A stretch of 45,328 bases of DNA from Rhodospirillaceae bacterium. GTDB taxonomy: Bacteria > Pseudomonadota > Gammaproteobacteria > Steroidobacterales > Rariloculaceae. The stretch is taken from positions 1-45,328 of the forward strand of contig JAHEEN010000004.1 in the NCBI GenBank assembly GCA_024640685.1, in the 5' to 3' direction. Positions within the stretch are counted from its first letter, which is position 1; each line of letters begins with the position of its first letter. Under the pieces are notes generated by a model. The model was not told the origin of the DNA and ran no database searches. It saw nothing but the letters and a program-made list of their open reading frames with translations. A program made the translations under genes and the position numbers. Below are positions 13,125 through 45,328 of this stretch, piece after piece.

Positions 13125-14102
13125 GTGGCAATGATGAAGCTTTCTGAGATCGTCCGGTTCGGTGTGTTTGCCGGCGCCTTGTTGTCTGCCGGTTGGGTAC
13201 GAGCGGCCGACGAGCCGACTGCGACCGTCGTGACGGGCATGCAGGCGACATACTCGCTGGCCGTCGCGCTGACGGCCGACACGCCTATCGACGTCGTCAA
13301 TGTGCCAGCCGATGGCCGGCAGTTGACGTTGCTCAGGGACTACATCGGTCGACGCATGGACAGGCTCGCTCCGACGTTCGCCGATGCGAGCGCCGTCGTA
13401 TCCGTGACGAATGCATTGCCAGGCGACCCAATCTATCGCTTTGCGCGCGAGGCTAATATCCGAATCGTCAACATCGATGCGGCGATTCCGTGGTCGCTGA
13501 CGTCACCCGGTGTCGCGTTGACGGACGCGCCGGTATCGGACGTTGCCTGGGGCGTCGACACGGACACGCCGGATGCAGCGACGAGTCCGTATTTCTGGCT
13601 CAGCATTTCGAACACGATTCGAATGGCCGACTTGATCGCACATGACTTGGCGGAGATGTTCCCCGACTCTGCGCCCGCGATTGCGCGGAATCTCGACACG
13701 TTGAAGCGCGGCCTGCTCGCGGTCAGAAACGAGTATCAGAACCGCTTGATCGAGATCGGCGATGACACGGTCTTTGCGTTGACCGGAGATTTCGTCTACT
13801 TGACGAACGACATGGGGCTTTTCGTCGATGGTTACTTCATTAAGCAGGACATTCGCTGGACCGAAGACGATCTTGCGGCACTGACACGGCATCTCGAGGA
13901 CAGTGGCATCCGCGTCGTGCTCCACAAATGGCTGCCGAGCGATGAGATTCAACAGGCGATCGCTGCGGCCGGTGCCGAGCTCGTCGTTCTCAATACGGCC
14001 GATCCTGGCCTAGTCGCCGACCGACAACTCGTTGCCGATGGCTTGCAGCAGATTCTCGAGCGCAACCTCGAGGCGTTGTTTTCGGCGCTGGCGGGCGACT
14101 AG
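13125..14102 (+). CDS. Second metal ABC substrate-binding-like protein (FpvF-like)
   Basis: GAGGAGG RBS and signal peptide. DPIYRFAR..NIRIVNIDAA.P and PYFWLS motifs. Lacks the canonical His ligands. Confidence 0.75.
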   Translation: MAMMKLSEIVRFGVFAGALLSAGWVRAADEPTATVVTGMQATYSLAVALTADTPIDVVNVPADGRQLTLLRDYIGRRMDRLAPTFADASAVVSVTNALPGDPIYRFAREANIRIVNIDAAIPWSLTSPGVALTDAPVSDVAWGVDTDTPDAATSPYFWLSISNTIRMADLIAHDLAEMFPDSAPAIARNLDTLKRGLLAVRNEYQNRLIEIGDDTVFALTGDFVYLTNDMGLFVDGYFIKQDIRWTEDDLAALTRHLEDSGIRVVLHKWLPSDEIQQAIAAAGAELVVLNTADPGLVADRQLVADGLQQILERNLEALFSALAGD

Positions 14103-14242
14103 CAGTCTGTCAAAAAAATCTCAGAGGAGTGCAGTTCAAGGCGAAAACGCTCGAGAAAGCGCAGTGTACACGCCAGTACATGAGCATTTTGAGAGCGTTT
14201 TCAACGCCGAAATGTGCCGTCTGAGATTTTTTTGACAGACTG
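14103..14242. mobile_element. 140-bp MITE-like element with perfect terminal inverted repeats and CTAG duplication
   Basis: CTAG|CAGTCTGTCAAAAAAATCTCAGA ... TCTGAGATTTTTTTGACAGACTG|CTAG. Nested internal stem GAAAACGCTC/GAGCGTTTTC. Confidence 0.8.
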
Positions 14243-15220
14243 CTAGAGCCAGCGGCGCCACTTGAAGAGGAGTGCAAGGCCGACGCCGAGCATTGCCATG
14301 ACGACGAGCGACAGGCCGAACGCAGACGAGTCCTCGGTACCCGGTAGGCCTGCGACGTTCATGCCGAGCAGACCTGTGACGAAAGTCAGCGGCAGGAAGA
14401 TTGCCGCTATGATCGACAGCAGGTAGATGCGCGAGTTCTGCTCTTGCGCAATGCGGTTCATGAGCTCCTCCTGCAGCACGATCGCGCGTTCCCTGACGAG
14501 CTCTAAGTCCTCGAGGAAACGGGTGATGCGATCCGCCTGCTCGCGCAGCGCTTCCTCCTCATGACGCGAGAACAGCGGTCCGGGATTGCGATAGAGCCGG
14601 TCTAGCGCGTCGCGTTGCGGCGCGAGGTAGCGGCGGATGGCCGCCGTTCGCCGCCGAATGGCGCCGACTTCGGTGCGCAGCGCGGTTGACTCGGCGTTTG
14701 GCGCATCGTTCTCGGTTGCCTCGACGAGATCTTCGATGCTGTCGACGATGACGCCGATGCGCTCGGCGATGAATTCGACGAGCGTTACGACGAACTCGCC
14801 TACCGTTCGCGGTCCCTGGCCGGCATCGATCGCGTCGCGAACGTCTTGAACCGAAAAGATCCGGCGGCGGCGCACCGAGATGATTCGTCCGGGCTCGATC
14901 CAGAGCCTGACGGCAACCATGTCGTCGGGACGGGCGCCGGGATTCATGTTGACGCCGCGCAGCACGAGCAGCAGGCCGCGGTCGGACGACACGGCACGCG
15001 GCCGCGTCTCGTTTGCGAGCAATGCGTCCTCGATCAGGCTATCGATATCGCTGCGATCTGAAATCCAGGCACGCGCGGCCGGGACGTTGAGATCGAGATG
15101 CAGCCAGACGACGCTATCGCGTCCGAGCGCGGCGTCTAGCGACTCGGGTTCGATAGGCTGTCCGCCGCCTCGACCGTCGAGCTCGACGGCATGCACGAAC
15201 GGTGAGTCGTTGGGCGTCAC
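14243..15220 (-). CDS. zntB: Zinc transporter ZntB (CorA family)
   Basis: WLHLD, ETRPR, LRGVNMNPGARPDDMVAVRLW, RRYLAPQRDAL and FLPLTFVTGLLGMN motifs. Confidence 0.9.
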   Translation of the reverse strand: MTPNDSPFVHAVELDGRGGGQPIEPESLDAALGRDSVVWLHLDLNVPAARAWISDRSDIDSLIEDALLANETRPRAVSSDRGLLLVLRGVNMNPGARPDDMVAVRLWIEPGRIISVRRRRIFSVQDVRDAIDAGQGPRTVGEFVVTLVEFIAERIGVIVDSIEDLVEATENDAPNAESTALRTEVGAIRRRTAAIRRYLAPQRDALDRLYRNPGPLFSRHEEEALREQADRITRFLEDLELVRERAIVLQEELMNRIAQEQNSRIYLLSIIAAIFLPLTFVTGLLGMNVAGLPGTEDSSAFGLSLVVMAMLGVGLALLFKWRRWL

Positions 15221-41332: not shown

Positions 41333-41397
41333 GCGGTTTCGCGACGTTAATTGCTACCTTAACGAACTACGGCCAATAGCATACGTTCGCATGTGGC

Positions 41398-41871
41398 TCA
41401 CGCCGACTCTCTTTTTACCGAAAGCTGCTCCTCGAGGAAATCCTGAAATGACTCGTCAAATGATTCTTTGAACACATTCCAGGACGCCCGAATAGCCTGC
41501 CGTCGGCTTCCGAGGTTCTGGATTATCCAAAGCAACTCTCGCCAATACTCGTCCGGAAGCAAACGCTTCCTCCGTAGCACATACATATCGTGCCAGTGGA
41601 GAATTGCTCGGCGCTCGAAGAAGACCAGCCGAGTCCTCTCGACTTCACCAAGACTTTCAAAATTCATACCTTGGACCCAAATCTCCGCGAATTCCTGGCT
41701 ATCGCTAACCGACGTCGATAGTTCAGTGTCTCGCTGTACACGCTCGCTCGCGGCGCTCGCGCGCATCATCTCTGTGTTCTGGCCAATCTGTCTGGCAACG
41801 TAGATAAGTGATGCAACCACTGCAATCGCTGCGATGATCTTTCCAATGTAGGCATATTGTTCGAGCGTCAT
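41398..41871 (-). CDS. Hypothetical protein with N-terminal TM helix
   Basis: GAGGGG RBS. N-terminus MTLEQYAYIGKIIAAIAVVASLIYVARQI.QNT followed by a helical body. Confidence 0.75.
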   Translation of the reverse strand: MTLEQYAYIGKIIAAIAVVASLIYVARQIGQNTEMMRASAASERVQRDTELSTSVSDSQEFAEIWVQGMNFESLGEVERTRLVFFERRAILHWHDMYVLRRKRLLPDEYWRELLWIIQNLGSRRQAIRASWNVFKESFDESFQDFLEEQLSVKRESA

Positions 41872-42083
41872 GATTTCCCCTCATTCTTCTTTGTTCGGGG
41901 GGTATTATGCGCCCGGCGCTAGTCGAGGTTGCGTGCGCTACCGGATCTGAAACGCCGCTCGAAAATAAGCTCCCGCCTAGCTTATCTCAGTAAGACTCTT
42001 ATTGTCGGGAGCTATGAAAAAATCACTCGGCTAGGCGAAAATCGTTCGTACGGCGAATTCTCAAAGTAATTGTGAGGTTCGAC

Positions 42084-42599
42084 TTAAATTTTGCAGGAAG
42101 CAGGAAGAAATGCCTGATCGACCGTCGGCGCGAGATAGGCTGCTGCACGCCCTCCCCCTGCTGTGCCGATCGGGCTCAATCCGGCTGGCTCCAACGCTGC
42201 GCCGCAGCGCCATACGACGCCGAGATTCGCCGTCTCGTAAGGGGTAAGGGTTAGAGTACGACCAGCGATGATCGCGTTCGCCCGGTTTCCGAAAGTGACG
42301 ACAATGACACCATCCACGATACCCACAGAGGCCACATAGATACCCGCCGTATCGGCAGCGTTCGGTGTAAGGCTTGCTTGCGCACGATCGGCTGGTGCCT
42401 CACCGTCGATCTGAAACGCTTCTGCAACTTGGGTCTTAACGTTTGCCGTGAGTTGTAGGGCTTCAGAAACCTGAGCGCGGACCGTGTAGCCCTGGTAGGC
42501 GGGAATGCCAATCGCAGCCAGTATTCCGACGATGCCCACGACGATCATGAGCTCGATCAGGGTAAATCCAGTTTGTTTCCGGTCGATCACTAAGAGCAT
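42084..42599 (-). CDS. pilA: Type IVa major pilin
   Basis: Prepilin cleavage site KQTG|[30 protein letters not shown]-terminal disulfide (WRC...PASC). Confidence 0.92.
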
Positions 42600-42941
42600 C
42601 TCTAATTTCGATGTTCACGAAGCCTAACTCATGGTTTCGGCTAAGCCTCAGGATTTCCTTGCTCATTACCTGGATTAATTTGCGCTCGCATTTCATCTAA
42701 ATGTGCAACGGTTGAGTTCAGCAGTCACGAAGTACGCTCAGCCTGTAACGGACTGCGCATTAGATCCTGGGCTTGCATGAGCCAGAAGAGAGGACTAACC
42801 GGGTAAACTTGGGGCTAGCAGTTTGCGGCCGATAGCACTGGGGTGGACTCCTCCTCACCTTACGGCATCACGATGCTCCAGACTGGATTGAGCGTTCTTC
42901 AAAACGAATTATCTCAGTCACAGGAAGACAAGAAATCCGAG

Positions 42942-43464
42942 ATGCAGATTACCCGTGTTGGTGTGGATTTGCCGCAAAACGTCTTTCAGGTACATGGCGT
43001 CGATGCCACAGGTCGGCCAGTGCTTACACGGCAACTCAAGCGTTTCAACTGGCTGAAGGTGCTTAGCCAAATACGACAACCAGGCTGCGACATTGGCATG
43101 GAAGCCTGCGTCGGGTCGCATCACCGGGCGCGGGAGCTTCAATCGCGCGGATTTTAGGTCAAGCTCATCGCGCCACAGTTCGTCAAGCACCTCAAAACAT
43201 CACGGCACCGGCGGTAAGAATCTCATCTACCGCATCACCAAACTTGGCGATCCTTATCTGCGTAGCATCTTGATCCATGGCGCTCGTGCCGTAGTCAGCC
43301 AGGCCAAACGGCGTGATGACCACTTGAGTAGATGGGGCACCGAGCTTGCTCAGAAACGGCACACGAACGTCGCCGCAGTGGCTCTCGCCAACAAGACCGC
43401 GCGTATTGCCTGGGCAATGCTCAGATATGGGACTGATTACAACCCAGAGCTCGTCCGCTGCTAG
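42942..43464 (+). pseudogene. IS110-family recombinase/transposase pseudogene
   Basis: GVDL..NVFQVHG...GMEAC N-terminus with a premature TAG at 43155. After IAPQFVK the sequence jumps to the C-terminal GG....ITK.GD.YLR..LIHGAR / VALANK.ARIAWA block (internal deletion). Confidence 0.88.
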
Positions 43465-43519
43465 GCGATCGAGCTCAATCGCTGAATAACAAAAAGCCTG
43501 TCACTTACGCTTGCAAAGC

Positions 43520-43700
43520 ACAGTGGAAGATGCTGAAACGGTCGATCCGGCGCCAGTCAAACCCGAGAATGTCCGGGTGCGAAAAAGCACGTAAAAGCGA
43601 TTGGGAACTGGCGCGCGCAGACCCAACAAGGCCCCGCATCAACGTATGCCAACTCTCGAGGCGGGATACACGGGCGCAGTCATCCTGCTCCCCACTAACC
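43520..43700 (+). ncRNA. Putative bridge/seek RNA in the IS1111 right-hand non-coding region
   Basis: Stem GCGCCAGT/ACTGGCGC encloses an internal loop (GAATGTCCG / TAAAAGC) and inner hairpin GTGC-GAAAAA-GCAC. A second stem-loop follows. Boundaries approximate. Confidence 0.65.
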
Positions 43701-43771
43701 ACTGGCTTGCAAAACGAGGAGGAGTCCATATGCGGTCATTCACGCATTTATTCGTGAACCTGACCTGTGCT

Positions 43772-44212
43772 CTAGTCTGCGCTAACGAGATTTATCGTGA
43801 TTACCAAGTCCGTCGCGGATAAGACGATTTTTGCGTCTTCGTAGGATGCCGGCCCGAAGCGACCACGCGCGTTGTTGGAAAAACCAATTCTCTCTTTTGG
43901 TATTCGGAACAGCCCCGTGTCTAGTTCGCCATCCATATCTTCATCGTAGATCGCGCTTACAGCGTATTCCCCCGAAACTAGCCCGTGAAAGACTACGGTA
44001 CATCGGCCTTCGTCATTCACCATGCCCGTCTGCTGGGCTGTGGGCGTTTGCAGAAAATTTTCAGAATCGAACAGCGAAACGATAACTTGGCCCAGATTCG
44101 GATGTGCGTCTTCTACAGTCACCGTCAATAACAGCCCGCTATCCTGAGCCCACACCTCACTGACAGAGACTACACACAGCAGGACCACGAAGGGCCTTTT
44201 CATTAGGTTCAT
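43772..44212 (-). CDS. DUF2141 family protein
   Basis: G.V.VSLF, GEYAVS..YDED.DGELDT....IPKE..GFSNNA...FGP motifs. Confidence 0.88.
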   Translation of the reverse strand: MNLMKRPFVVLLCVVSVSEVWAQDSGLLLTVTVEDAHPNLGQVIVSLFDSENFLQTPTAQQTGMVNDEGRCTVVFHGLVSGEYAVSAIYDEDMDGELDTGLFRIPKERIGFSNNARGRFGPASYEDAKIVLSATDLVITINLVSAD

Positions 44213-44248
44213 CGGTCCACGCTATTCAATTCGAGCACAACCTGATGC

Positions 44249-44500
44249 TTAACTGCCGCTGAGTTGGTCTCGGATCTCGCCCAGCCGATCGTAGGTCCTA
44301 AACGCGAGAATTGCGGTCTCAAAAATTACACGAACAGTCAGGGTTCCAAATATGAGCGGAAAGGGCCATGCCCAATGCCCCCGCGAGTAAAGAATGGCGC
44401 TTCCATAAAGCGTTCCACCTATTGCTCCCCAGAAAAGAATCTGAAGAAGCATCGGCGAAATCATCCGACGAAACGTCAGAGTCTCAATTAGCGTCTTCAT
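44249..44500 (-). CDS. DUF4282-like small membrane protein
   Basis: LTF..MISP.LLQILFW ... RV..E..IL.FR....L..I pattern. Confidence 0.7.
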   Translation of the reverse strand: MKTLIETLTFRRMISPMLLQILFWGAIGGTLYGSAILYSRGHWAWPFPLIFGTLTVRVIFETAILAFRTYDRLGEIRDQLSGS

Positions 44501-44957: not shown

Positions 44958-45075
44958 CCGTCACCCTGTATTTCTGGCACCGTTGTTCCGTTTCTATCGC
45001 GAGTCCTGCGCTTGTGCCAGCGTCTACATCCGGACAGCTTAAGCCGAAAACTCGATTCCGAGAACATACCACGGG

Positions 45076-45165
45076 AACGTCCGCTCTTCGCTCGTATCTC
45101 GCCGTAATTTCTTGTTAATGACTTGGACCCGATCCAACCGGTAGCTTTGGGGCGAACAGCCGACC
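45076..45165 (+). repeat. Paired degenerate palindromic repeat
   Basis: GTCCGCTCTTCGCTC (45079) and GGTAGCTTTGGGGCGAACAGCCGACC (45140), 61 bp apart. Confidence 0.55.
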
Positions 45166-45328
45166 TGCTATTTCGCTATGTTATCGGTTTGTTTAACAAG
45201 TACGGCCATTAGCTACCGTTCCATAACTAGTACCAATGGTAGCCGCCTTGAATCATGAAGACGGGGCCAAACAAACTCCCCGCATTCGATCCCAGTGTTC
45301 CAATAAGCGCGCTAGATTTCTCATCGTT

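Follow-up and report, generated by a model that had tools for sequence, protein, structure and literature searches.

A decayed IS1111-type element in a gammaproteobacterial contig and the predicted RNA guide to its palindromic target

The insertion sequences (IS) of the IS1111 type with a guiding seekRNA include ISEc11, ISPa11, ISKpn4, and ISPst6 (Siddiquee et al., 2024, PMC11187229). In the compared sections of that paper, these elements have subterminal inverted repeats of 12–14 bp, beyond which the left end continues for 7 bp and the right end for 3 bp; they encode a ~340-aa transposase and have a long non-coding region located 3' of the transposase gene and a preference for foldable, palindromic targets; their two short guides overlap at the insertion point, the complement of the top strand standing 5'. 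The same features were found for an element located in a 45,328-bp stretch of the contig JAHEEN010000004.1 (Rhodospirillaceae bacterium, assembly GCA_024640685.1), the whole of which is herein referred to as the window, with the transposase length taken from its relatives. In contrast to the described elements, the window copy is dead, and the nearest relatives found, about 70% identical in DNA, do not include any ISfinder-named element in the resources covered. The target AAAAG^CGGACRTTC is absent from the text of the compared sections of PMC11187229, the figures and supplements of which may show it.

Durrant et al. (2024, PMC11208160) predicted a bridge RNA for 93.0% of IS1111 elements, placing it in the right end, and the location of the predicted RNA in the window agrees with the compared part of that paper. 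For IS621, the same part describes an internal loop whose sides read the two target strands and a second region reading the element's own ends, as predicted here; in contrast, the IS621 RNA is located in the left end, and its guide order is reversed. Insertion in extragenic palindromes and a small RNA gene, putative in the window, downstream of the transposase are also shared with ISPpu9 and ISPa11 (PMC12288879, PMC11187229, parts compared), but the palindrome family is a different one, being far rarer per genome than the repetitive extragenic palindromic (REP) sequences of Pseudomonas. Thus, the guide mechanism (2024) and the targeting of palindromic repeats are already published, and the window copy is an ordinary further example. 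Targeting of palindromic repeats and of attC sites by IS1111 relatives was established in 2003–2009.

The element in the window is very probably a decayed IS of the IS110 family, IS1111 type, with a DEDD recombinase that was directed to its target by an RNA from the 3' non-coding region (seekRNA or bridge RNA). The parts of this predicted RNA that face the target are the following:

43540..43623, plus strand: target-binding stem-loop of the predicted seekRNA/bridge RNA, from a single-sequence fold and the consensus fold of 36 relatives
43567..43575, plus strand: right-target guide GAAUGUCCG, standing 5' in the loop; its sequence complements the right flank's top strand
43593..43599, plus strand: left-target guide AAAAGCG, standing 3' in the loop, in the sense of the top strand of the left flank and spanning the crossover

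When folded alone, the region 43540–43630 reaches -34.7 kcal/mol (z = -3.28), and only one of 200 shuffled sequences was as stable. In this fold, the two guide strings are located on opposite sides of one internal loop, which is flanked by a stem (CCGGCGCCAGU / ACUGGCGCG, then CCCGA / UUGGG) and an apical hairpin (GUGC-GAAAAA-GCAC). The first-pass annotation, made from the letters alone, had described a loop segment complementary to the right flank at eight of nine positions, with AAAAGC standing opposite it for the left flank GATAGC, and had proposed folding of the non-coding region as a check. Both strings were found where it had placed them, inside the loop: GAATGTCCG (43567–43575) agrees at 8/9 positions with the reverse complement of the right flank CGGTCATTC, and AAAAGC (43593–43598) agrees with GATAGC at 4/6. 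The loop as a whole spells AAAAGCG / GGACATTC, and the actual site, GATAG^CGGTCATTC, is an 11/14 match to it, with three of the 14 positions differing. The 14-mer AAAAGCGGACATTC, with up to three mismatches, occurs eight times in the window vs. 3.68 expected. No Rfam match was found in 42000–44500 at E-values up to 1; thus, no curated family covers the guide RNA. Taken alone, the window provides only modest evidence, and the weight of the case comes from the relatives of the element.

A search with the element DNA gave partial matches of about 70% identity in eight other genomes (with the window's own genome, nine of the 61 related genomes searched), and one of them led to an intact copy of the element. 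A scan with the transposase of this copy, at one genome per species, revealed 80 loci with protein identity of 51–100%, found in Pseudomonas, Massilia, Woeseiaceae, Halieaceae, and many uncultured Beta- and Gammaproteobacteria. Element ends were located via inverted repeats, and 71 non-coding regions were aligned. Both flanks were scored for 61 loci, of which L016 was dropped, its left end being mis-anchored; the other 60 loci belong to 32 guide clusters. Because related elements share ancestry, the permutation test included one representative per cluster.

The loop columns aligned with GAATGTCCG and AAAAGCG of the window vary widely, tracking the flanks of each element: in the relatives, the right flank is complemented by the 5' loop segment, and the 3' segment has the sequence of the left flank, continuing across the crossover. 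The mean match between guides and cognate flanks in the 32 clusters was 12.94/16, vs. 7.61 (sd 1.64) for non-cognate pairs, and none of 20,000 permutations (0/20000) reached the observed cognate total. The cognate target took the first rank for 28 of the 32 guides. Thus, tabulation of the relatives' flanks, named in the first-pass annotation as the check for guide-target covariation, gave a positive answer. Examples of the guide/flank pairs are as follows:

L014, guide CCTCCGCG with flank CGCGGAGG
L050, guide TGCATGCG with flank CGCATGCA
L066, guide GAGGGGCTG with flank CAGCCCCTC
L070, guide TTTTCAACA with flank TGTTGAAAA
Further guide/flank pairs: AATGAGCG with CACGCTCATT; TTTGCGACA with TGTCGCAAA; GATTCCCG with CGGGAATC
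Opposite side of the loop, guide/flank pairs: GTTGACACG with GTGTGACAC; GCGGGGCCG with GGGGCGGGGCC

The guide U positions face A or G in the targets, and a guide U probably pairs with either of these bases. In all, 33 loci, the window included, have a window-like guide. Their flank consensus is gCCaAAAG^CGGACgTTCa, and the target common to them is, in short form, CCAAAAG^CGGACGTTC. The loop consensus of these 33 loci, GAATGTCC / AAAAGCG, is exactly the loop of the window; therefore, the window loop spells the preferred site of its clade. The earlier proposal that this IS lineage is programmed for the repeat family is supported by the one target of the 33 loci. L032 has the same mismatch between guide and site at GGTC as the window, and in L043, L047, and L055, also located at GGTC sites, the loop compensates with an A. 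The segment complementary to the top strand precedes, on the 5' side, the segment for the bottom strand, and the same guide order was published for IS1111-type elements (PMC11187229, section 9). Among the matches listed for a plasmid collection, relatives were annotated solely as "IS110 family transposase" and none was located in a class 1 integron. The clade is therefore not tied to a named ISfinder element.

The consensus fold of the 36 relatives provides an additional line of evidence. In this fold, 96.1% of the helix cells are paired vs. 83.0% in shuffles, and the helix covariation score is 0.444 vs. 0.173, a value reached by none of 500 shuffles. Slid controls, with the partners moved by 1–3 columns, gave covariation scores of 0.03–0.08. 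Compensatory changes on both sides were found in 15 of the 26 pairs, and all 19 pairs of the target-side helices are intact in the window. A structured RNA with loop segments predicted to pair with both target strands, like that of the seekRNA elements, is thus supported by the fold together with the covariation of guides and flanks. A second domain, which may read the ends of the element itself, follows the target-binding stem-loop:

43624..43675, plus strand: donor-side domain, in which CCCAAC (43622–43627) faces the left end and GAUACACG (43665–43672) faces the right end

As read off the alignment, the segment GGAT[A/G][T/C]A[C/T]G of the relatives tracks the right end CCAT[A/G][T/C]A; in particular, the donor segments GGATATACG, GGATACACG, and GGATGTAYG track the right ends CCATATA, CCATACA, and CCATGTA. 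In the same way, YCCAT tracks ATGGR of the left end. In contrast to IS621, where a simple internal loop has such segments on its two sides, the putative donor-reading segments of the present clade flank a stem; this layout fits a remark on a multi-loop arrangement in IS1111 in the part of PMC11208160 compared.

The element itself is located on the plus strand, has a length of 897 bp, and is placed between a type IV pilin gene and a DUF2141 gene. Its parts and neighbors are the following:

42836..43732, plus strand: whole degenerate IS1111-type element, 897 bp, with bounds set by the 7-bp/3-bp convention for terminal extensions
42843..42856, plus strand: left subterminal inverted repeat, GT GGACTCCTCCTC, corresponding to ATGGACTCCTCCTC in the relatives and having its reverse complement at 43716–43729
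43716..43729, plus strand: right subterminal inverted repeat, GAGGAGGAGTCCAT
42942..43157, plus strand: N-terminal transposase remnant, 71 codons, with an in-frame TAG at 43155–43157
43188..43212, plus strand: junction of an internal deletion (about 495 bp lost), placed by alignment alone, to roughly ±15 bp
43213..43464, plus strand: C-terminal transposase remnant with stop codon, part of PF02371
42084–42599, minus strand: type IV pilin gene (Pfam Pilin, N_methyl)
43772–44212, minus strand: DUF2141 gene (Pfam)

According to the IS1111 convention, the ends extend 7 bp to the left and 3 bp to the right of the inverted repeats (PMC11187229, introduction), and by this convention the insertion point is ...GATAG^CGGTCATTC. 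The first-pass annotation gave the element as 42837–43731 plus one GC, which is the same element as 42836–43732, and the restored empty-site sequence is identical under both boundary readings. In its reading, the left flank ...GCGGCCGATAGC has its last base at 42836, the element starts with ACTGGGGTGGACTCC at 42837 and finishes with ...GGAGTCCATAT at 43731, and GC GGTCATTC follows directly (43732–43741). A few bases inside each end, GGACTCCTCCTC (42845–42856) pairs with GAGGAGGAGTCC (43716–43727) as a 12-bp inverted repeat. The ends of the relatives align as ...LT | CA ATGGGAT GGAC ... GTCC ATATA | CG RT..., which is the 7-bp/3-bp arrangement. Thus, as in IS1111 elements generally, subterminal inverted repeats of about 11–13 bp are accompanied by 7-bp left and 3-bp right extensions. 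There is no target-site duplication, a single C (or GC) being shared at each junction. Insertion is sequence-specific and oriented, with the one target of the 33 loci always in one orientation relative to the GGCC loop. The non-coding region from the stop codon (43462–43464) to the element end has a length of 268 nt, and its length downstream of the transposase is 226–357 nt in the 71 aligned elements.

The transposase is represented by two remnants. The N-terminal one is 69% identical to residues 1–71 of the L065 transposase (BLASTP, E = 1e-34) and, taken alone, falls below every Pfam threshold. The C-terminal one matches PF02371 (Pfam, E = 4e-05) and is 76% identical to residues 261–340 of the same protein (E = 3e-42). 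Intact relatives encode both PF01548 and PF02371, and the combination typical for IS1111/IS110, a DEDD, RuvC-like PF01548 domain with PF02371, is covered by the two remnants together. In the DNA alignment to the intact 1405-bp L065 element, positions 1–351 of the window element correspond to 1–336 (71% identity) and positions 336–896 to 832–1404 (70% identity), with about 495 bp missing. With this deletion, residues ~83–260 are gone; they comprise the remaining part of the DEDD domain, the coiled coil, and the first part of the C-terminal domain. The terminal repeats, both transposase remnants, and the deletion therefore identify a dead IS1111-type member of the IS110 family. The first-pass annotation was right on both counts: an IS1111 element is present at the site it named, with ends, remnants, and all strings at the coordinates given there, and the recombinase is dead, having a TAG after codon 71, no residues ~83–260, and only residues 261–340 left.

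No second copy of the element was found by blastn in the 3.49-Mb assembly of 333 contigs, and the exact flanks of the element have no other occurrence in this genome. An empty orthologous site was not found in 84 genomes of the same family, where only pilin paralogs and IS relatives were matched; the DUF2141 gene had no DNA match in these genomes, and the pilin gene had many paralogous matches. The left end of the IS faces the pilin gene, about 237 bp upstream of its start codon (42600–42835), and the insertion may have separated this gene from upstream signals. The region from ~41.2 kb to the contig end has a low GC content and looks like accessory DNA.

The target sites of the clade are imperfect palindromes of the form (G)AAC-GTCCGCTTnTGGCCG ... 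CGACCCAAAGCGGAC-GTT(C), which occur in many Gamma- and Betaproteobacteria and stand after gene ends. Read on the other strand, the sites have the form (G)AAC GTCCG^CTTnTGGCCG..., which is one arm of the palindrome. The repeat consensus used for comparison was derived in this analysis. Three clear copies were found in the window, each directly 3' of the stop of a minus-strand open reading frame (ORF):

41360..41392, minus strand: intact repeat copy (a), directly after the stop of the ORF 41398–41871
45135..45225, minus strand: intact repeat copy (b), a 93-nt imperfect palindrome after the stop of an ORF running off the contig end
42817..42835, plus strand: left half of the split target, copy (c), ...TTTGCGGCCGATAG, with the loop GGCCG and the start of the 3' arm
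43733..43741, plus strand: right half of the split target, copy (c), CGGTCATTC

Copy (b) reads ATGGAAC GGTAGCTAATGGCCG ... CGCCCCAAAGCTACC GGTTGGAT, and its outer stem, CGGTAGCT/AGCTACCG, was predicted by folding. The left half of the split target aligns with the window copies ACTACGGCCAATAGCATACGTTC (41368–41390) and AGTACGGCCATTAGCTACCGTTC (45201–45223), in agreement with the first-pass claim that excision of the element restores a copy of the repeat. The 9-mer CGGTCATTC adjoins right ends or right-end remnants in L032, L011, G104, and G105. Solo right-end remnants of the IS clade, about 45 nt long and still joined to this 9-mer, were found in three other genomes of the family, at L128 (G104), L129 (G105), and L011 (G020:C55); those in G104 and G105 are located just upstream of a gene, and L011 consists of two right ends 114 nt apart.

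The first-pass annotation had called the repeat real and abundant, and of these two words only the first holds for the assembly of this genome. Apart from the three clear copies, about 12 degenerate members were found on other contigs of the genome, all with weak scores to the short target profile. No abundant 14-mer of the genome resembles the target motif, and searches with degenerate motifs gave counts close to those of reversed controls; therefore, the idea of a highly abundant REP was dropped. Other repeats were observed in the window. A repeat of about 65 nt is present three times in the genome (window 45061–45125; G000 C15:650–715 and C72:2400–2450) and contains ATTACGGCGAGAnAC ... GAGAGCGGACGTTC, a near-match to the IS target; a structure of this 65-nt repeat has no support from folding (z about 0.4). 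At 14099–14246, a 148-bp element with perfect 27-bp inverted repeats (CTAGCAGTCTGTCAAAAAAATCTCAGA ...) is located at a gene end and resembles a miniature inverted-repeat element; the bases it starts with, CTAGCAGT, are found again beside the IS insertion site, at 42815–42822.

For the nature of the palindrome, two explanations are about equally likely, each falling somewhat short of an even chance. According to the first, which refines the explanation of the element as RNA-guided, the target is an integron attC site in a cassette array whose integrase was lost, and the element belongs to the IS1111-attC group. IS1111 relatives in the studies of Tetu and Holmes (2008) and Post and Hall (2009) are said to insert at a fixed position and orientation near one attC core, and Tetu and Holmes (2008) reportedly also noted decayed footprints in cassette arrays whose integrase had been lost. 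The core sites of attC are R'' (RYYYAAC) and R' (GTTRRRY), separated by a variable center, with unpaired bases in the stem. Copy (a) has the ends GCGAAC ... GTTCGT and copy (b) the ends ATGGAAC ... GTTGGAT, the GTTGGAT presumably fitting the consensus GTTRRRY. The location of the repeats directly after the stops of small ORFs of the same strand, with a GC content of 0.535 around the copies vs. 0.623 in the genome, argues for attC, as does copy (b), whose 93 nt form an imperfect palindrome between ..GGAAC and GTTGGAT, one C of the stem being unpaired. Arrays are known from one genome, G065 (Oxalobacteraceae), where at least 30 same-strand copies of a ~110-nt unit are spread over 66 kb of contig C6 (22.5–88.5 kb; loci L100 and L130–L134); the units stand among small genes, some at a spacing of 370–1300 bp. 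Additionally, an integron integrase above the curated cut-off was found in 22 of the 61 related genomes, including G051, flagged as unpublished, and one genome of the same genus.

The position of insertion is also in line with attC. As in the IS1111-attC group, one relative, in G008, occupies a classical attC site, at a distance of 6 nt from its GTT core, and the insertion of the window clade is 5 nt from GTT(C). This relative (L114, G008:C1, ~1160–1162 kb) is an intact IS1111 element; the site it occupies, ..GTCCGCTGCAG^CGCATTGTTAGGC, belongs to a chromosomal integron, whose integrase is located a few kb away, and the loop segments of the element, AACAATGC / TTGCAGCGG, match the site. In contrast to that group, the window repeat is only a candidate attC. 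No integron integrase (TIGR02249) above the cut-off was found in the window's genome, which is 92.95% complete, or in any of the five other genomes with relatives at the same target (0/5); G065 has none above the cut-off. For a covariance model (R1), 16 classical attC sites of relatives were used; this narrow model (effective sequence number 1.36) recognizes the integron sites of the same-genus genome G002 with 81.6 and 59.7 bits, but matches nothing in the window at 41–45 kb and none of the G065 repeats. Several targets (L117, L042, and L065) are hairpins of about 33 nt, shorter than usual attC sites, and the arms of the split copy (c) pair poorly.

In the second explanation, the target is a REP-like or terminator-like extragenic palindrome without any relation to integrons, comparable to the REP sequences targeted by ISPa11 and ISPpu9. 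Many targets are short hairpins with a GGCC-containing loop, present singly in genomes without integron integrase, and REP targeting by IS1111/IS110 elements is described in the compared parts of PMC11187229 and PMC12288879. However, classical REPs are far more numerous, and the pattern GTCCGCTTYTGGSC was not enriched relative to the reversed control in five genomes (28 vs. 37 in G061). The 110-nt form in same-strand arrays is also atypical of REPs.

It is unlikely, but worth naming, that the palindrome AAC-GTCCGCTTnTGGCCG ... CGACCCAAAGCGGAC-GTT is a distinct kind of cassette-boundary site, a possibility raised because it spans Beta- and Gammaproteobacteria, forms an array of at least 30 units without integrase, and escapes the attC model of the lineage. 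If so, a recombinase other than IntI would serve the site, and the IS1111 clade would be its dedicated parasite and a handy marker for such arrays. In G065, a 622-aa tyrosine recombinase with DUF3701 was found at ~106–108 kb, adjoining the last partial copy of the repeat. As a partner of the array, this recombinase family is doubtful and was set aside, being absent from the window's genome and from four of the five other genomes with the same target.

Returning to the element as a decayed RNA-guided IS, several observations weigh against this reading. The target of the window takes only the second rank for its own guide (12/16) among the 32 representative targets, which reflects either an off-consensus insertion or later sequence drift. 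The own flank is likewise not the first for L039 (rank 17, 7/16) and L045 (rank 3, 9/16), and the guide of L060 ranks its flank second (11/16). Owing to common ancestry, the guide clusters are not fully independent. The left guide of the window matches its flank at only 5/8 positions in the family scoring scheme, at the low end of the family range of 4–8, and a 9-mer complementary to the flank with at most one mismatch was found in 777 of 20,000 shuffles (3.9%) of the 251-nt non-coding region. On the donor side, the window segment GATACACG mismatches its own right end, CCATATG, at two positions. Finally, DNA identity to the nearest relatives reaches only about 70%, and neither an intact sister copy nor an empty orthologous site was found.

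A function of the non-coding region retained after the loss of the transposase, as a guide RNA acting in trans or as a domesticated small RNA, is improbable. The intact state of all 19 target-side pairs beside a ruined transposase would fit such a function, and for ISPpu9, a small RNA gene derived from the IS is reported to occur also in stand-alone copies (PMC12288879, part compared). However, the assembled genome has no other copy of the element to serve, the donor guide mismatches the right end, and the donor-side helix has two broken pairs in the window, each the sole exception among the 36 sequences. That the likeness of loop and flank in the window is due to chance, with the loop not encoding the site, has hardly any probability, since, despite the frequency of such 9-mers in shuffles and the match of only 4/6 for the left guide in the first-pass scoring, the same alignment columns match the flanks in relatives of quite different sequence and the segment is located in the structurally right loop, in the published order.

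Under the favored explanation, an active ancestor, or a helper copy acting in trans, would have excised the element as a circle. The predicted RNA would then have paired with both strands of the arm of a palindromic repeat downstream of a gene, a few mismatches being tolerated, and the recombinase would have inserted the element at G^C. The copy would subsequently have died through the stop codon and the 495-bp deletion, and further decay may account for the two right-end changes relative to the donor guide and for the two broken pairs of the donor-side helix. The initial observation is confirmed, and its interpretation is supported, with the exception of the abundance of the repeat.

The mechanism published in 2024 is unchanged by the present finding. 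A dead copy of an RNA-guided IS still lets its address be read, and this reading of the guide can be checked without experiments, through comparison of relatives. Guide loops of IS1111 remnants can be used to annotate the repeat families they parasitised. In the window, the family of palindromes indicated by the loop is a marker of low-GC stretches of accessory genes in several proteobacterial lineages.

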